From the NCBI RefSeq assembly GCF_003334765.1, contig NZ_QOWT01000013.1: DNA of 64,000 nucleotides; one strand, 5' to 3'. Each line of letters starts with the position of its first letter. Position 1 is the stretch's first letter. Of the stretch, positions 3,085 to 54,894 are shown one piece after another. Under the pieces are notes generated by a model, which was not told the DNA's origin, did not search any database, and saw only the letters and a list, made by a program, of their open reading frames with translations. The translations under genes and the position numbers were made by a program. Source of the stretch: Escherichia coli (lineage in GTDB: Bacteria > Pseudomonadota > Gammaproteobacteria > Enterobacterales > Enterobacteriaceae).

Positions 3085-4932
3085 TTACCTGATTAATTGT
3101 TCCGCTTTCGATACGATTTGCGAGCTGGATCGCGCAGGCAGATCATAATTGTAAATATCTGTACGATACTGGGTACGACCATCTGCACCAACAAAGGCCG
3201 TCAGGTAGTAGAGATTCACCGGAATCGACTGCCGAATATTGACGTAACGTGTATCACCCTGCTTCAGCGCATCAGAAATACGTTTGTCATTCCAGCCTGC
3301 ATCCTGCAACAGCATATTCGCCAGATCGGAAGCTTTATTCACTCGTACACAGCCTGAGCTCAATGCGCGTGTATCACGCTTGAACAGATTGTGGTTCGGC
3401 GTGTCATGCAAATAAATGGCCTCTGAACTCGGCATATTGAATTTATAGCGCCCCAGCGAGTTCCGTGGGCCTGGAGCCTGCTGGAAGCGGAACGGTAAAT
3501 TCGAGGCCGTGATTGTAGACCAGTCAACCTGCCATGGGTCAATCGCTTCTCTGCTGTTCCAGCCGCGCATCACCGTATAGCCATGGCTTTCGAGATATCC
3601 CGGATCGTTGCGCACTTTTGGCAGAATATCTTTGCGTGCCAGAGTTGGAGGTACGTTCCACGGCGGGTTTACCACTACGTTGTTAAGGGCACTGCTCATC
3701 ATCGGCGTTTTGCGATCGGGGCGACCGACAATGACTCGCGAATCCAGCACCTGATTGCCGTTCTGATAGTAGACCAGCGAATAGGCCGGAATGTTAACCA
3801 TGATCCCGGTAGAAAGCTCTGTTGGCAGCAAGCGCAATCGCTGGATGTTGAGAGCCAACACGCCAGCACGCTGGGCGGGCGTTACGTTTAACCAGTCACG
3901 TGTTGCCGGGCCAATAGCACCATCTGCCCCCAATCCTTGCCATGCCTGAAAACGTTTAACGGCTTCCACCAGTTCATTATCGTAGGCGGCGCGAACGGCA
4001 GGCGCAGGTTTACTACGAGACGTCGTTTGCTTATCCATCGGCTTAGTTTCTGCTGTTTCAACAGTAACAGCGGATGGGCTGACTACCGCGTCAGTTGGCG
4101 TGTCATCGCCAGGTAGAGTAATTTTCGGCCCCCCGTCCAACATGCCTGTGCGTTGCAATATTTCGCGCAACGCCGGTACGTCGTTACTCCACTGCCCTGG
4201 GCGCAACGTTGCTTTGCCGGTCAGTTGGGGCCACGGTTTGGTGTCACAGAGTAAGGCCAGTAACGATTCATGCATCGCCGCATATTGCGGATGCTGCGGT
4301 GCCAGTCCTGCAACAAACGTAGGCAATTGACCTTTATCCAGCGCCAGCTGCCATTGGTTAATCACCGAGAGCGGCGGCGTTGCAAGTGCATAAGGTTTAC
4401 TGCTATATAGCCAGCGAGTGCCTTTGACCGGAATATTTGCAATGAAATGGAGATAGCCCATCATCGCATCAGAGAGCACCACGTCGCGTGCCATCCCGTT
4501 AACACCAGGATCGGTCAGTAACTCTACCCATTTATTAAACTGCGGCTGGAAACCGGCAATCGCCACCTCTGCCAGCTGTTGCTGGAAGGCTTTAACAGCA
4601 TCACGGTTTTCCCACATGGGTTGCATATCGCGTGCGGCATACAACAGTTGAAGCTGGTTAAGATAAACCGGCTTGTAACCTGCGGGTAATTGAGATTCGA
4701 TTTGCGTGCGGGCTTTTTCTGCCGCACCTTCAGGCAATGGCTGGATCCCCGCCATTATTGCCGTGGCTTGCGCCTGCGGCAGTGCCTCGCCCTGTTCACT
4801 GACAGCCACCGGGCTGTCGCCAGGGATTACTTCAGGCTCATCGGCCTGCGCATTGAACAGTGGAGCGAATGTTACGGCCAGGCACAAACTGATTGCCGAC
4901 AGCCGACGACCACACATCATATTAAGCAACAT
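3085..4932 (-). CDS. ldtD: L,D-transpeptidase LdtD (YcbB)
   Basis: 615-aa ORF with signal peptide; size and position match K-12 ycbB. Confidence 0.9.
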
Positions 4933-46641: not shown

Positions 46642-47985
46642 TTAACGGTAGCGTTTTATGGGGCTATTTTGATCCTGTTCAGCCAGCCAGGCGAGCTTTT
46701 CGCCAATCTTGCCTTCAAGGCCCCTGTTTGTCGGGAAATAATAGCGTGTTTGTGCTATTTCCGGCGGGAAGTAAACCTCACCGGCAGCATAAGCGTTTGC
46801 TTCATCATGAGCGTAACGATATTCCTGCCCGTAGCCCATTTCCTTCATTAATTTCGTCGGCGCATTACGCAAATGAACCGGCACGTCATAATCCGGGCGT
46901 TCGCGAGCATCGGCCAGCGCGGCTTTAAACGCAGTGTAGACAGCGTTGCTTTTTGGCGCGCAGGCCAGGTAAACAATCGCCTGAGCAATGGCGCGTTCAC
47001 CTTCCGCCGGGCCAACGCGAGTAAAGCAATCCCAGGCCGCAATTGCCACCTGCATCGCCCGTGGATCGGCATTACCGACGTCTTCAGACGCAATCGCCAG
47101 ACAGCGACGCGCGACATATAACGGATCGCCACCAGCGGTAATAATTCGCGCATACCAGTACAGCGCCGCATCGGGTGCGCTACCACGTACCGACTTATGC
47201 AGTGCGGAAATCAGATCGTAAAAGCGATCGCCTTTGTTATCAAAGCGGGCGCTACGTTCACCGGCGATTTCGGTCAGTAATTCAGGCTTCAGGACCCGCT
47301 TACCGCTATCATCGACTTCGGCCATATCCGCCATCATTTCCAGCGTATTTAACGCCCGGCGCGCGTCGCCATTCACCAGTTCAGCAATGGCGCGTCGTGT
47401 TTCATCTGGCAGAACAATATCCTGACCACCATAGCCACGGGTTTTGTCTTCCATCGCCTGAGTTAGTACTTGCTCAATATCCTCTGTACTCAGGGATTTC
47501 AACAGATAGACACGGGCACGGGAAAGCAGTGCCGAATTAAGCTCAAACGACGGGTTTTCAGTGGTTGCGCCAATAAAAGTGATGGTGCCGTCTTCAATAT
47601 GTGGCAGAAATGCATCCTGCTGGCTTTTGTTGAAACGGTGAACTTCGTCAACAAAAAGAATAGTGCGGCGACCTGCATTGCGGTTTTGCCGGGCGCGCTC
47701 GATCGCCTCGCGAATCTCTTTCATGCCAGAGGTGACGGCAGAAATACGTTCCACATCAGCGTTCGCATAGCGGGCAATCACTTCAGCGAGAGTTGTTTTG
47801 CCGGTACCCGGCGGCCCCCAGAGGATCATAGAATGTAAATGCCCGGCTTCGATAGCGCGCGGCAACGGCTTCCCCGCAGCCAGCAAATGTTGCTGGCCGA
47901 TATACTGTGCTAAATTTTCTGGCCGCATACGCGCGGCCAGAGGTTGAAAAGTATTATCCGAAAAATCGAGCGACAGATTGCTCAC
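46642..47985 (-). CDS. rarA: replication-associated recombination protein A (AAA+ ATPase)
   Basis: 447-aa ORF; Walker [10 protein letters not shown]. Confidence 0.95.
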
Positions 47986-47995
47986 TCAGGTGCCT

Positions 47996-48607
47996 CTACT
48001 TACGTTGATCATCTACCGTGACGCCTTGCGGCGGGGTGAAGGTAAATTTCGCTGCATCCACAGCCCCATTTTGCTGGGATTTCAGTTGATAACTGCTGCG
48101 CTGATCGTCCTGCTCCACCGCGCTAAACTGATGGATTGTGCCATCACGTCCCACGTTAATGGTGAACTGCTTCAGATTGCCATTGCTGGCTTTCGGCGTC
48201 AGGACAAAGTCATCGCCATTCTGTTTGATATTGTACTGCTGCCAGTCGCTGGACTGGTTGCGGGCAATCAGCATAAACGGCGTATTACCGGTGGCATCTT
48301 TCAGCCAGGTTGCCGTAGCTTGCTCAACGAACGGGTTATAGAACCACAGTGTTTTACCGTCAGAAACCAGAATGCTTTCATCAGGTTGTGTCATATGCCA
48401 GTTGAATAAGTTTGGACGTTTCACCCACAGATCGCCCTGACCTTCCTGCACCGCCGCGCCGCTACCGTCAGTCACTTTTTGTGTGAAGCTGGCGTGGAAG
48501 CTGCTGACTTTATCCAGGCGGCTTTTCAGATCGCTTGCGGCATCAGCCCAAACGCTGCTTGCTACTAAGCTTGAGAGTAATGCACAGGTGATGGCAATTT
48601 TTTTCAT
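47996..48607 (-). CDS. lolA: outer-membrane lipoprotein carrier protein
   Basis: ORF 47996..48610; start at second Met ([13 protein letters not shown]...), 203 aa with signal peptide. Confidence 0.93.
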
Positions 48608-48718
48608 CATTATTCCTCAAATTACGTCACTCCCGATCGGGAGTTCCCTCTACTCTCTATTCCAGGCTAATAATCAGCTTGAGGAAAGAAGAAAATACTG
48701 AATTTTCAGTTGATAGAG

Positions 48719-48755
48719 TGCCGGATGCGACGCTACCGCGCCTTATCCGGCATAC
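48719..48755. repeat. REP element between ftsK and lolA
   Basis: tgccggatgcgacgctaccgcgccttatccggcatac, canonical REP-like palindrome. Confidence 0.65.
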
Positions 48756-48765
48756 GATGCATTAG

Positions 48766-51700
48766 TTAGTCAAACGGCGGTGGGGCCAGCACTTCACGAT
48801 TACCGTTGTGCCCCTGTTCGCTGACAATCCCCTGCGCTTCCATCTGTTCGATAATACGCGCTGCACGGTTATAACCAATGCGGAACTGACGCTGTACGCC
48901 AGAAATTGACGCTTTGCGTTTTTCAGTGACAAACTGCACCGCCTGATCGAACAACGGATCCAGTTCTTCAGCGCCATCGAAACCACCCGCACCACCTTCG
49001 CTTTCGCTGTCGGAGGTGATGCCATCAACATACTGTGGGCGACCACGCGCTTTCCAGTCCTGCACCACGGCATGAACTTCCTGATCGCGAACAAAAGCAC
49101 CATGGACACGTACCGGCAACGTGGAGTTCGGCCCAGAGTAGAGCATATCCCCCATACCCAGCAGTGATTCCGCGCCAGCCTGATCAAGAATGGTACGTGA
49201 GTCAATCTTACTGGATACGGTAAAGGCGATACGGGTCGGAATATTCGCTTTAATCAGACCAGTAATAACATCAACCGATGGACGCTGAGTTGCCAGTACG
49301 AGGTGGATACCCGCGGCACGGGCTTTTTGCGCCAGACGTGCTATCAGCTCTTCCACTTTTTTACCTACCGTCATCATCAGGTCGGCAAATTCGTCAACCA
49401 ACACCACAATGTATGGTTCTTTTTTCAGCACCGGATGCTGGGCATCCATACTGTCACCCGGCTTCCAGTACGGGTCTGGAATCGGACGCATCATGCGATC
49501 GGCTTCAGCAATTTTTTCGTTATAACCCGCCAGATTACGCACACCCAGCGCAGACATCAGTTTATACCGACGCTCCATCTCGTTAACACACCAGCGCAGC
49601 GCGTTGGCGGCATCTTTCATATCAGTAACGACTTCCGTTAACAGATGCGGAATGCCTTCATAAACCGAAAGCTCCAGCATTTTCGGGTCGATCATGATGA
49701 AACGCACATCTTCTGGCTGTGCTTTATAAAGCATGCTCAGGATCATCGCGTTCACACCGACAGATTTACCGGAACCGGTAGTCCCCGCAACCAACAAGTG
49801 CGGCATTTTCGCCAGATCGGCAACCACCGGCTCACCGGCGATATCTTTACCCAGCACCACGGTTAATGGCGACGGATTATCGCGGAATTTGGCGTTATCC
49901 AAAACTTCGCGCAGATAAACGGTTTGTCGTTTTTTATTCGGTAACTCCAGACCTACATAGGGTTTGCCAGGAATAACTTCAACGACACGCACCGCCACCG
50001 TCGAAAGTGAACGGGCAAGGTCCCGTGACAAGTTAGAAATGCGCGCCGCTTTTACGCCCGGTGCCAGGTTCAATTCAAAGCGAGTGATAACCGGCCCCGG
50101 AGAGTAATTGACGACATCGGCTTTAATACGGAAATCAGCCAGACGCGCTTCCACCAGGCGAGCCATTTGTTCAAGCGCAAAGGTATCTACCGGCTCCACT
50201 TCGCTCGGCGGCGGTGTCAGCAAATCCAGAGAAGGCAGCGGCGTCGTCGGTTTATGCAACGGACGGCTGTCGCCATTACGCATCAACAGCGGATGAAGCA
50301 GGGTATCCTGCGGTTGTGGCGCAACTGGCTGTTGTGGCTGCTGATACTGCTGCTGCGGCGCAACCGGTTGTTGCGGCTGCTGATATTGCTGCTGTGGCGC
50401 AACCGGTTGTTGCGGCTGCTGATATTGTGGCTGCGGCGCAACCGGCTGTTGTGGCTGCTGATACTGCGGCTGCGGCGGAACTGGTTGTTGCGGCTGCTGA
50501 TATTGCTGCTGCGGTGCAACCGGTTGTTGCGGCTGCTGTACAGGTTCAACAATTGGCGTAAACAACGGTTCGTGTGGACCATCATCCAGCAACGCTTTCA
50601 TTGGCGAAAATTCAAAATCATCCAGCGAGAACGGATTCGCCCCAGCCGGTTGTTCGCCGGAATAACGTTGTTGTTGAGTTTGCGCAAACTGACGAGCCAG
50701 TTCAGCCTCTGCCGCAGCATCTGCATCTTCTGCGTTTACGGGCACATCATGTTGATACTGTTCGCCATAGCGTTGCTGCTGTGTCTGGGCGAACTGACGT
50801 GCCAGTTCATCCTGCTGCATCGCATCGATTTCATCATCGTTGTACTGATCGCCAGAATCGTACTGATTGCGCTGGGCTTCACGGGCTTTTTCTTCCGCCG
50901 CACGCTGTGAGGGCAGCTTAATACCGTAAGACGCCAGTTCACGACGAGTTGGCACGCGGATACGTTTCGGTCGTGGCAACTGCGGACCAATCCCCTCTTT
51001 GACCTGAGGACGCGGTCCACCGCTATTTGCCAGACTGAAGACTGGCGCGGCAACGGTTGCGGCAGCCCCCGTCGCCAGTGTCGCTTTTTTCACGCCAGAT
51101 GCCAGCGGGGAAACAGCGGCAGCGGCTTCTACTGGAGGTACTGCTGCAACAGAAGGTGCTTTCAGCGAAGATTTGATCGGTTCTGGTTCTTTAACCGGTT
51201 CTGGAATCGGTTGATACCAGGCCGCAAGTTGTTCACGTTCACGGGCTCGCTTCTCTTCAACTTCTTCAAAGTAGTAAAGCGGCGGACGCGCGGGTTTTGT
51301 CTCTTCTACAACGGGTTCAGGCTCCACAACAGGCTGCTGTTCAACGGGTTGCGGCTGTTGGTACAACGGCTCCTGAGCGGCTGGCTGCTGATAAGTTTGC
51401 TCAGTCTGGTATGTAGACTGTGGAGCAAAAGTGGATTGCTGCTCTTCGGCTTGCCAGGCGTTACCTGCCACCGGTTGTTCTGGCGCAGGGGCATAATACG
51501 GCTGTTGCGCAGGTTGTTCAGCTGCAGGTGCATAATACGGCTGCTGCGGCTGTACTGGTTGTTGCAGCGGCTCATTATATTGCACTGCAGGCTGCGCATA
51601 TTGTGACTGCTGTGGGTAACCTTCCGGTGCAGGAGCAATAACCGGCTCTCCCGTTTGTGGACCCGGTACAGGCTGCCAGGCTACTGTAGGTTGCGCAGGT

Positions 51701-52755
51701 GGAACATCAACAGAGGCAACAGGCGGCGTCTGAGTCACAGGTTCAACCGGCGCAGCCCAGCTTTGTGTCGCCGTGGTAGCAGCAGCTGCTACAGCGACAG
51801 GTTCGGTAATTGGCGCACCGTTTAATAATGGATCGTATTCGTCATATTCTGGCTGCGTTGCACGATTGCCCGAAAATAGGACGTCGTCCGGGTCGGCAGC
51901 CACACCGCGTGCAGTGTAGGTAATCTCTTCGTCATCATCCATCCGCTTACCGGAGAACAACGCAGCGTCTGTTTGCCGCCCCATCGGATTAATGAATTTT
52001 TCCGCCAACCGTTTACGACGCGCTAGCGCGCCGCGAAGAATACGGGCACGGCGTGATTCATGCTGTTTGCCGTGATTTTCATCTTCATACTCTTCGTCGT
52101 CTTCATACTCATCTTCATCGACCCAGGTATCATCGCGACGGGTACGATTACTGGCGAAGGTGAGAATGTTTAAAATCCAGCCGCCGAGTTTTTCAGCAAT
52201 GGTCACCCATGACCAACCGGTGAACAACGTCAGGCCCGCTGCCCAAACGCAGAGCAGCGCAATAGTTCCCCCGCTACTGTGTAGCAGTGGTTGTAGCGTA
52301 GTGCTTAGTAAGCTGCCAATGACGCCACCGGAGGCAAAATACCAGATATCGTCAGCGTTGATTGCCGCCAGACCACAGGAGGTAAGGATGAGCGCCAAAA
52401 CGCCAATGATGCGTAGCGAAACGGCAAAATAATCAATGTATTCGTCGCTGGACTGATGACGCCAGGCAAACCAACAACCGCCGACAATAATGACGGGAAT
52501 GGTGTAAGCCATCACGCCAAAAATAAAGAACAGCGTATCTGCCAACCACGCACCGGGCATCCCACCTAAATTATGGATAGGTTCATGCCAGGCCGTTTGC
52601 GACCAGCTGGGGTCCGAAGGGTTAAAGCTTAGTAAGGCAGCCATCAACCAGACGGCAAACAGGACAATAAGGATCAGCAACGCCTCCAGAAGGCGGCGGC
52701 CGCTACTTAACTTTGTCAATGTGACTTCTTTGTCTTCAGTGTATTCCTGGCTCAA
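48766..52755 (-). CDS. ftsK: DNA translocase FtsK
   Basis: 1329-aa ORF: N-terminal membrane domain, Pro/Gln-rich linker, C-terminal motor domain with Walker A GTTGSGKS. Confidence 0.97.
50283..50560. repeat. 39-bp tandem repeats encoding the [13 protein letters not shown] repeats of the FtsK linker
   Basis: caaccgg motif recurs at 50361, 50400, 50439, 50478 (variant) and 50517, i.e. period 39 nt; about six 13-aa units in the protein. Confidence 0.8.
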
Positions 52756-52889
52756 GAAAGGCTCTCCAGGTTACAGGCTTTTCCTGCCCGATGCTAAAAC
52801 GGACAACAGTACCAGGTTACCCCAGTACTGTTGCTGTATGGATTAACAGGAGTGTAATCAAAATACGCCGATTTTGCACCTGTTCCGTG

Positions 52890-53384
52890 TTAGCGCGTCT
52901 TAATAACCAGACGATTACTCTGCTTGACTTCTTCCATAACAACGTATGTCCGTGTGTCATTGACGCCAGGCAGACGCAGCAGGGTTTCCCCCAGCAACTT
53001 ACGGTAGGCTGACATATCCGGCACGCGTGTTTTCAACAGGTAGTCGAAATCACCGGATACTAAATGACACTCCTGAATTTCTTCAAGTTTTTGTACAGCG
53101 GTATTGAATTGTTCAAACACATCCGGTGCGCCACGATTCAGAGTAATCTCAACGAATACCAGAAGTGATGCATCCAGATAATGGGGGTTAAGCAGCGCCG
53201 TATAGCCCTGAATAAACCCTTGTCTTTCCAGCCGACGCACACGCTCAAGGCACGGCGTTGGGGAAAGTCCCACACGTTTAGAAAGCTCGACGTTAGAAAT
53301 ACGCCCATCCTTTTGCAACTCATTAAGAATGTTACGATCGATACGGTCGAGATCTTTGCCAGGGCGCTTCTTGCTATCTACCAT
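52890..53384 (-). CDS. lrp: leucine-responsive regulatory protein
   Basis: ORF 52890..53438; start at MVDSKKRPGKDLDRIDRNIL (164 aa). Confidence 0.97.
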   Translation of the reverse strand: MVDSKKRPGKDLDRIDRNILNELQKDGRISNVELSKRVGLSPTPCLERVRRLERQGFIQGYTALLNPHYLDASLLVFVEITLNRGAPDVFEQFNTAVQKLEEIQECHLVSGDFDYLLKTRVPDMSAYRKLLGETLLRLPGVNDTRTYVVMEEVKQSNRLVIKTR

Positions 53385-53811
53385 TATTATTGTCTCTCTG
53401 TATTCCTTCCCTACTCCTGTCTGACCCTGAAACATCACTGTTCAGAGTCGCTACCCGTCACGATAGACCGAAATCATGAAGATTCACGGCGCGCAATGCC
53501 TGGGTCTACGGTGAGAAGACCGTTGCCTTGTGGCAGCTATCGACATCACGAATGGCGTCTGTCCACGCCATACGTAGATTTCACTAGCACGGTAAACATG
53601 GTATTTACATGCATGGTTATGCGCATATAAGAATACTGTTTTTTTTCTTCCTCGAATGTTTTCGCAAAACACCAGGGGATTGTCAAAGCAAAACATCGAT
53701 TTTTAGTACAACATGCCAGATATTCATTAACAGGGGCGTTTATTCATCATTTAATCGGCTTATAAAGCGGGAAATTTAAGTAGCAGAGGTGATAATGACG
53801 GGAGAATTTGA

Positions 53812-54894
<1,083 letters not shown>

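Follow-up and report, generated by a model that had tools for sequence, protein, structure and literature searches.

The FtsK linker encoded by the DNA analysed here (64 kb of an Escherichia coli genome, hereafter the window) ends in six tandem units of 39 nt. It is already known as a VNTR typing locus, which the generic E. coli MLVA scheme lists as CVN001 and the Shigella/E. coli scheme as ms07. We consider it very likely, with a probability of about 0.85, that the locus is a coding minisatellite encoding a length-tolerant, Pro/Gln-rich spacer in the FtsK linker. Because it is already in use as a strain-typing marker, the array is ordinary as a locus. The broader picture, a disordered linker of an essential division protein being rebuilt by repeat turnover with its composition apparently under selection, would be unsurprising to a specialist.

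Six in-frame repeat units adjoin the FtsK motor

The open reading frame that contains the array matched the NCBIfam equivalog NF007615, 'DNA translocase FtsK', over residues 1-1329 with 3049 bits (cut-off 1566), and matching E. coli genomes all carry the annotation ftsK for this gene. The Pfam domains of the protein are 4TM, alpha, FtsK_SpoIIIE and gamma. The array lies between FtsK_4TM and FtsK_alpha (Table 1), which agrees with the linker location proposed in the first-pass annotation. The crystallised C-domain of E. coli FtsK (PDB 2IUS) comprises residues 818-1329 and the last residue of the array is 817.

Splitting the array along the codons of the minus-strand reading frame gave exactly six units of 39 nt (13 codons). 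The unit peptide of 13 residues ends C-terminally in [Q/P]QY; Pro or Gln occupies 10 of the 13 positions of the consensus unit, and Tyr is the last residue in five of the six units, with Asp in the final one. Tandem Repeats Finder recovered the 39-nt period at 50318-50538 (5.7 copies, 88% matches, score 344). The base identity at a lag of 39 nt was 0.872, compared with 0.500 +/- 0.033 (maximum 0.626) when the codons of this region were shuffled 2,000 times, and nowhere else in the 64-kb window did it rise above 0.44. The unit sequence, the count of 'about six' and the gene assignment made from the sequence at the outset were thus correct. The interval of 50283-50560 given at that time does contain the array, but its boundaries were ~22 nt too wide on either side.

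A second periodicity of 117 nt, or three units, was reported by Tandem Repeats Finder at 94% and weakly suggests an old duplication of three units. Units 1-3 differ from units 4-6 at 2, 3 and 6 positions, and adjacent units differ at 2-7.

Table 1. Coordinates of ftsK, its repeat arrays and the typing primers in the window
Feature	Position	Strand	Details
ftsK CDS, host gene of the array	48766-52755	-	1329 aa + stop; ORF list
FtsK_4TM membrane domain (PF13491)	52183-52698	-	residues 20-191, N-terminal boundary of the linker; Pfam scan
ms06 primer site	51637-51656	-	
Second in-frame 39-nt array, two units	51469-51546	-	residues 404-429; Tandem Repeats Finder row 51473-51548, allele alignment, census
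ms06 primer site	51356-51375	+	
ms07 forward primer	50779-50798	-	exact, single match in window
CVN001 forward primer AACCGGCTGGGGCGAATCC	50633-50651	-	exact, single match in window
Six-unit linker array	50305-50538	-	residues 740-817
Array unit 1	50500-50538	-	codon-register split
Array unit 2	50461-50499	-	codon-register split
Array unit 3	50422-50460	-	codon-register split
Array unit 4	50383-50421	-	codon-register split
Array unit 5	50344-50382	-	codon-register split
Array unit 6	50305-50343	-	codon-register split
Residue 818 codon, start of crystallised C-domain	50302-50304	-	directly after the array; 2IUS chain match
FtsK alpha subdomain (PF17854)	49936-50238	-	residues 840-940; Pfam scan
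ms07 reverse primer	50212-50231	+	exact, single match; primer from PMC8215070 Table 1
CVN001 reverse primer GGCGGCGGTGTCAGCAAATC	50207-50226	+	exact, single match in window; primer from PMC8143711 Table 1
CVN001 amplicon	50207-50651		445 bp
ms07 amplicon	50212-50798		587 bp

PMC5357621 and PMC3870252 describe the FtsK linker (FtsK_L) as an unstructured, Pro/Gln-rich region that differs in length between species, contacts other divisome proteins and is required if FtsK is to be fully active. The array shares the Pro/Gln-rich character of the linker and its place between the membrane domain and the motor, but constitutes only the last 78 of ~650 linker residues. An AlphaFold2 model of residues 688-960 (20-sequence alignment) had no secondary structure over the array, with a mean pLDDT of 48 that was equally low for the folded alpha domain used as a control, so the model does not count as evidence of disorder. 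The array peptide, Pro/Gln-rich with one Tyr per unit, is probably without regular structure, and would be the final segment of the tether between the membrane-anchored N-terminal domain and the hexameric alpha-beta-gamma DNA motor.

The array is the typing locus CVN001/ms07

CVN001 belongs to the generic MLVA scheme for E. coli of Lindstedt et al. 2007, as applied in PMC8143711 and PMC5217547. The CVN001 amplicon in the window corresponds to (445-250)/39 = 5 by the published sizing formula, (PS-250)/39 (PMC8143711). The six units of the window are therefore CVN001 allele 5, since the 250-bp offset of the MLVA convention contains one unit. For ms07, which has a repeat size of 39 bp and published amplicons of 392-821 bp corresponding to 1-12 units (PMC8215070), the amplicon in the window gives 6 units. 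CVN001 alleles 4-8, which are 5-9 units in our counting, have published frequencies of 1, 40, 40, 13 and 5% (PMC5217547), and these match the census described below. The primers, the 39-bp unit, the allele range and the frequencies all agree between these markers and the array; only the offset in numbering differs.

Repeat number varies among E. coli strains in whole and partial units

Copy number was determined by BLAST with the flanks only, in two evenly spaced samples that gave 117 distinct complete E. coli genomes from ~5,426. The census covers ~2% of the genomes and its figures are allele frequencies rather than counts of independent events. Seven units were present in 56 genomes (48%), six in 38 (32%) and eight in 8, followed by nine units in 3, five in 2 and four in 1. 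Partial-unit arrays made up ~7% of the sample, with lengths of 249 nt (6 genomes), 264 nt (1) and 171 nt (1). The array was disrupted in one genome, where it is annotated as frameshifted and looks like a sequence error. No E. coli genome of the 117 lacked the array altogether. Strain VTB96929v has an allele of two units. The suspected proneness to copy-number change was therefore borne out, with 2-9 whole units and additional partial-unit alleles across complete E. coli genomes, and with 4-9 units in the census it is clearly not the case that strains share one repeat number and sequence.

The length of the array was divisible by 3 in every intact allele, including those of 171, 249 and 264 nt. 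With a unit of 39 nt and intact alleles that are all multiples of 3, changes in copy number do not switch the frame as in a phase-variable contingency locus.

We propose that slipped-strand mispairing or unequal recombination between units adds and removes units, and that occasional deletions between short direct repeats within a unit would leave partial units of 15 or 30 nt. The two partial units observed encode QQPQY (CAGCAGCCGCAGTAT) and QQPVVPQPQY. We infer that the former arose by a 24-nt deletion between two copies of CAGCCGCA in Pro-variant units. Only the in-frame products of such events would survive in intact alleles.

A second repeat array is present in the same linker

Upstream in the linker, a second in-frame 39-nt array (Table 1) is the VNTR marker ms06. 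It is also polymorphic (1-4 units), on the evidence of an alignment of four full-length alleles and of the census. The combined number of units in the two arrays ranged from 6 to 12 over the eight alleles with an available gene length, and there appears to be no tight length compensation between them.

The repeat peptide is conserved and similar arrays occur in related genera

The six units vary in 11 columns, eight of which fall on third codon positions. Over the 15 unit pairs, pS was 0.47 and pN was 0.041 (pN/pS = 0.09), and eight alleles yielded 14 peptides from 33 distinct DNA units. Since nearly every difference between units is synonymous, the composition of the peptide appears to be under selection. 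The length of the array would be constrained loosely (2-9 units here and 1-12 by PCR sizing), and selection would conserve its amino-acid make-up.

Protein homologues retrieved with residues 700-1000 were for the most part pieces no longer than 527 aa from short contigs, and relatives were compared by a contig scan. Arrays at the same position were found in Citrobacter werkmanii (39 nt x 5.1), Leclercia (36 nt x 5.6), an Enterobacter species (42 nt x 7.4), Superficieibacter (45 nt x 6.8) and Photorhabdus (9 nt x 11.7), and all adjoin the conserved SLIHPxLMRN at which the motor starts. In the same scan, the more distant relatives Rahnella, Yersinia, Pectobacterium, Vibrio, Shewanella, Pseudomonas and the Betaproteobacteria were without such an array.

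The Salmonella locus STTR7/SENTR2 is likewise a repeat in ftsK, with a 39-bp unit and ~9 copies, and is used for MLVA (PMC2430564); it belongs to a different species, and its link to the array rests on gene name and unit size, with the position of this array, rather than that of the second one, assumed. Two S. Enteritidis strains differ in repeat number inside the Pro/Gln-rich FtsK linker (PMC6137255). The difference of 84 bp (28 aa) is counted there as two repeats out of nine, so the units in those strains would be 42 nt long.

Does the array do more than span a distance?

The strong synonymous bias, together with the single aromatic residue in each unit of five independently patterned arrays across genera, could mean that the array is more than a spacer. 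One such possibility, which we regard as improbable though the strongest of the alternatives, is a multivalent module, in which Tyr in its Pro/Gln context would act as a weak 'sticker' for a divisome protein or for FtsK itself, and the number of copies would set the valency and hence the clustering of motors at the septum or the assembly of the hexamer. The pN/pS of 0.09 among units is consistent with this, as is the aromatic end of units of 12-15 aa in E. coli, Citrobacter, Leclercia, Superficieibacter and Enterobacter sp. Bisph1. Two-hybrid contacts of parts of the linker with FtsQ, FtsL, FtsI and FtsZ are reported in work cited by the review PMC5357621. However, the Photorhabdus array at the same position is a pure (QQP)n without Tyr, E. 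albertii has only ~2.5 units, an array is lacking in several Enterobacterales, and the natural E. coli alleles, from 2 to 9 units, give no indication of a preferred valency beyond 6-7. We know of no binding partner for the segment of FtsK formed by the array. It is somewhat less probable still that the array is a sticker-and-spacer module whose copy number, jointly with that of the second array 300 residues upstream, tunes FtsK self-association or divisome contacts. If this were true, it would influence when the hexamer assembles as the septum closes, and the natural alleles of 1-12 units would be a ready allelic series.

At the opposite end, the array might be a neutral low-complexity expansion, a mutational by-product tolerated in a disordered region with the reading frame as the sole constraint. 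The wide range of copy number would fit such an origin, as would the lineage-specific length and sequence of the units and the many relatives whose FtsK is fully functional without an array. An unconstrained peptide is not expected to have per-site synonymous differences about eleven times the nonsynonymous ones, and the presence of the array in every sampled E. coli genome also argues against this account, which we consider unlikely.

Copy number could instead be an adaptive tuning knob, with alleles that differ in fitness under particular stresses and the array serving as an evolvability device. The precedent is the E. coli tolA repeat, which is similarly in-frame and strain-variable, lies in an envelope/division-related protein and has a Salmonella MLVA marker, SENTR1 (PMC2430564). 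It differs from the ftsK array in that stress tolerance is reported to depend on its copy number (PMC3477136). Identical flanking haplotypes do carry different numbers of ftsK units: among 31 sampled genomes whose 360-nt flanks are 100% identical to those of the window, 4, 5, 6, 7 and 9 units were all seen. Two independent variable arrays in one linker would also be in keeping with tuning. Against this, copy number was uniform within the sampled clones, with 6 units in all 14 rows that had 100%-identical 600-nt flanks and 7 in all O157:H7 rows, which argues against rapid switching. In addition, when the ftsK repeat alleles with the 84-bp difference were swapped between two Salmonella Enteritidis strains, survival in egg white, the sole phenotype tested, was unaffected (PMC6137255). 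Adaptive tuning is thus an unlikely explanation. The natural allelic series could be used to address the role of this segment of the linker.

The array is very unlikely to be an element acting at the DNA or RNA level, such as a regulatory RNA, protein-binding array or recombination site, whose overlap with the coding sequence is incidental. Folding of the array is somewhat stronger than that of shuffles for both ssDNA (z = -5.6) and mRNA (z = -2.8), the former value being compatible also with slippage intermediates, and the 10-nt palindrome CAACCGGTTG occurs in three of the six units. The palindrome is missing from the other half, however, and a scan of 47500-54000 against Rfam returned no match. 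Because variation is concentrated at synonymous sites, the DNA units drift while the peptide is preserved, and it is the character of the peptide, not the DNA unit, that is retained in related genera.

Effects of the array on genome assemblies

Repeats of this size can collapse or be mis-polished and the array is disrupted in one genome, but an assembly artefact in the window is next to inconceivable, given that many independent complete genomes, K-12 derivatives included, carry the identical 6-unit allele, that the reading frame is intact and that the amplicon sizes derived from the window equal published PCR sizes.

The practical weight of the array, a typing marker of long standing, is modest. 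Short-read assemblies can break or collapse at it, and long-read consensus can add frameshifts, after which annotation pipelines may label ftsK a pseudogene. Partial FtsK entries were considered as possible contig breaks at the array and were not convincing, the largest cluster (P0068, 480 members) beginning 43 residues downstream. The earlier suggestion that the array causes assembly errors has anecdotal support only: the 'complete' genome CRE10 (NZ_CP034404.1), in which the array is partly duplicated and frameshifted, speaks for it, and two draft contigs are ambiguous. Both of these contigs are short and carry a one-unit array, which could reflect either a collapse or a genuine allele.

The FtsK linker ends in six in-frame 39-nt units

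The repeat array lies in a minus-strand ORF whose product is covered from end to end by the NCBIfam equivalog model for DNA translocase FtsK (3049 bits; cut-off 1566). From the length, layout and translations of the flanking ORFs, we take these to be lolA (downstream), lrp (upstream) and the divergent trxB; lolA is annotated adjoining ftsK in one E. coli record. Tandem Repeats Finder (TRF) recovered the array with a period of 39 (5.7 copies, 88% matches) and also with a period of 117 nt (94%), and the ftsK codon register resolves it into exactly six 13-codon units. The first-pass annotation had placed about six units in the FtsK linker at 50283-50560; the count and the site stand, while the interval was about 22 nt too wide on each side. 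Lag-39 identity within the array was 0.872, compared to 0.50 +/- 0.03 (maximum 0.63) when the codons of that region were shuffled 2,000 times, demonstrating that the array is real and far beyond chance. Elsewhere in the 64-kb window it never exceeded 0.44. The Pfam domain positions put the array between FtsK_4TM and FtsK_alpha, and therefore at the extreme end of the linker. The crystallised E. coli C-domain construct (PDB 2IUS, residues 818-1329) begins one residue past the array end. The stop-free ORFs in other frames over the array have Leu/Arg-rich or Ala-rich translations; they are not genes but a mechanical product of the CAG/CCG-rich repeat.

Features of the ftsK locus (window coordinates; FtsK residues)
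Feature	Coordinates	Strand	Residues	Remarks
ftsK ORF	48766-52755	-		3,990 nt; 1,329-aa product (ORF list)
FtsK_4TM			20-191	Pfam
6-nt periodicity	52078-52119	-	about 213-226	TTCATC x 7, 66% matches (TRF)
Second 39-nt array	51469-51546	-	404-429	in frame; two units, QQPYYAPA(A/P)EQP(A/V)
ms06 primers	51356-51375, 51637-51656			301-bp amplicon
LARQFAxxQQxRY, two copies	about 50662-50803	-	651-663, 686-698	35 residues apart
39-nt array	50305-50538	-	740-817	six 13-codon units, exact in register
39-nt array, TRF	50318-50538			period 39
CVN001 primers	50207-50226 (+), 50633-50651 (-)			445-bp amplicon
ms07 primers	50212-50231, 50779-50798			exact matches
FtsK_alpha			840-940	Pfam
FtsK_SpoIIIE			948-1161	Pfam
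FtsK_gamma			1264-1324	Pfam
Other-frame ORF	50167-50910	+		247 aa
Other-frame ORF	50214-50561	+		115 aa
Other-frame ORF	50283-50585	-		100 aa

Copy number varies among E. coli genomes

Flank-only queries were run against 5,426 complete E. coli genomes, so that each match reached across the array from one flank to the other. One query used 300+300 nt and a second 180+180 nt; with 60 records each taken at even ranking steps, they yielded 117 distinct genomes. Seven units were present in 56 of these, six in 38, eight in 8, nine in 3, five in 2 and four in 1; array lengths with partial units were found in the others (249 nt in 6, 264 nt in 1, 171 nt in 1) apart from a single disrupted array in strain CRE10. 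A two-unit allele, from strain VTB96929v, came from a separate earlier sample. Copy number thus ranges from 2 to 9 units, with partial-unit alleles besides, and in the flank-only census neither number nor sequence is uniform across strains. Array length was divisible by three in every intact allele, and inspection of eight alleles revealed that the partial units QQPQY (15 nt) and QQPVVPQPQY (30 nt) explain the non-multiples of 39. The DNA of the QQPQY unit, CAGCAGCCGCAGTAT, would be the expected remnant of a 24-nt deletion between two copies of CAGCCGCA in Pro-variant units. Eight records labelled as plasmids in the genome set also matched the linker flanks, either because plasmids may carry pieces of chromosome or because the replicons may be mislabelled.

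Arrays of 4, 5, 6, 7 and 9 units were all found among 31 sampled genomes with 360-nt flanks identical to those of the window, indicating that copy number changes on one flanking haplotype. Six units were present in 14/14 rows with 100%-identical 600-nt flanks, and seven in all O157:H7 genomes sampled. Despite the overall variation, copy number is stable within clones.

The locus is a known typing marker that is routinely used. The CVN001 primers of a generic E. coli MLVA scheme (Table 1 of PMC8143711) have exact and sole matches in the window, and the ms07 primers also match exactly; both pairs flank the array. The CVN001 amplicon gives a value of 5 ((445-250)/39) despite the six units, as one unit is counted within the published offset. 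CVN001 alleles 4/5/6/7/8, reported at 1/40/40/13/5% in a Swedish study (PMC5217547), correspond to 5-9 units in the present count, mostly 6 and 7, consistent with the census. For ms07, of a Shigella/E. coli scheme, reported amplicons of 392-821 bp (PMC8215070) correspond to 1-12 units. A 39-bp repeat in the ftsK gene of Salmonella serves as marker STTR7/SENTR2 (PMC2430564). The first-pass annotation is correct in both observation and interpretation.

The second linker array is the published VNTR ms06, with reported alleles of 2, 3 and 4 (PMC8215070). In an even sample of 60 genomes, a single unit was present in 1, 2 units in 18, 3 units in 21, 4 units in 19 and an odd span in 1. In an alignment of four full-length alleles, all ftsK length differences fell in the two arrays.

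The suggestion that the array can cause assembly errors found anecdotal support, from CRE10 and two draft contigs. In CRE10 (NZ_CP034404.1, locus L007, 1501-2128), a frameshifted duplication takes in the array and part of its upstream flank, and the annotation lists ftsK as a frameshifted pseudogene. Although the genome is labelled 'complete', an error of consensus or assembly is the probable cause; less probably, the non-essential C-terminal part of FtsK is truly disrupted. One-unit arrays in two E. coli draft contigs (673 and 1,030 nt) could be collapses or the genuine one-unit allele reported by PCR. An assembly artefact in the window itself is excluded by identical alleles in many independent complete genomes.

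Related arrays recur at the linker-motor junction

One genome per species was scanned, and the sequence leading up to the conserved start of the motor was then analysed by TRF and translated. The arrays found abut a common SLIHPxLMRN boundary.

Repeat arrays at the corresponding site in relatives
Species	Period and copies	Unit
Citrobacter werkmanii	39 nt x 5.1	QQPAQPVAPQQHY
Citrobacter sp. FP75	39 nt x 2.7	QQPPQPVAP(Q/R)QHY
Leclercia	36 nt x 5.6	AQPQQPAQPQQY
Enterobacter sp. Bisph1	42 nt x 7.4	QQPVQQPVAQPQQY
Superficieibacter	45 nt x 6.8	QQPQPAHQPAAPQPY
Photorhabdus cinerea	9 nt x 11.7	QQP

The Photorhabdus cinerea array (locus L088, about 3330-3434) consists of perfect GCAGCAACC repeats encoding (QQP)n and ends 4 nt before the motor match; its 100% identity suggests very recent expansion. 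In Escherichia albertii NBRC 107761, the closest sister species of E. coli, the array is down to about 2.5 units (locus L009, about 76-200 nt upstream of position 3501). An 11-alanine run encoded by GCTGCC x 7 comes before them, at the place of the first units of E. coli. Other Enterobacteriaceae carry degenerate Pro/Gln-rich sequence at this position, and among the genomes scanned no such array was found in Rahnella, Yersinia, Pectobacterium, Vibrio, Shewanella, Pseudomonas or the sampled Betaproteobacteria. The differing arrays indicate repeated birth and turnover of Pro/Gln-rich repeats at the linker-motor site in one family.

The array is a minisatellite of constrained composition

Comparison of the six units gives 11 variable columns, of which 8 are third codon positions; summed over the 15 unit pairs pS was 0.47 and pN 0.041 (pN/pS = 0.09). 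Across eight alleles, 33 distinct unit sequences (39, 30 or 15 nt) encode only 14 peptides. Very recent copying of the units is therefore excluded, and peptide composition is kept while synonymous sites drift and reshuffle between units. The periodic Tyr and this strong synonymous bias would suit a sequence-specific multivalent binding module, but the Tyr-free (QQP)n array of Photorhabdus and the wide copy-number range make that reading unlikely. Purely neutral expansion is slightly less likely still, being contradicted by the pN/pS ratio. An adaptive, tolA-type tuning knob is improbable, given stable copy number within clones. A DNA- or RNA-level element can be dismissed almost entirely, as there is no Rfam match in 47500-54000 and the peptide is preserved despite drift in its nucleotide sequence.

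The array is a coding minisatellite, in frame and polymorphic, located where the linker meets the motor and constrained in composition. At the DNA level, units are probably gained and lost via slipped-strand mispairing or unequal recombination. As single-stranded DNA the array has a more stable fold than its shuffles (z = -5.6), and the palindrome CAACCGGTTG is present in three of the six units; both observations are compatible with slippage intermediates. At the protein level, the array probably serves as a flexible spacer between the DNA motor and the N-domain, which is anchored in the membrane at the septum, since the linker is described as unstructured and Pro/Gln-rich, of differing length among species, necessary for full activity and contacting other divisome proteins (PMC5357621, PMC3870252). 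Tolerance of 2-9 units, and of 1-12 by PCR, argues that exact array length is not critical. In the sole functional test found, two Salmonella Enteritidis strains that had exchanged their ftsK repeat alleles showed unchanged survival in egg white (PMC6137255). In a check for disorder, AlphaFold gave low confidence to the array and equally low confidence to a folded control region.

Elsewhere in the linker, the weak 6-nt periodicity encodes an acidic run just past the membrane domain. Just upstream of the array, the 13-residue motif LARQFAxxQQxRY occurs in two copies in every Enterobacteriaceae locus examined, in one or degenerate copies in Rahnella, Yersinia, Pantoea and Rosenbergiella, and in no copy in Vibrio or beyond among the loci examined; it forms a conserved island within an otherwise variable linker.
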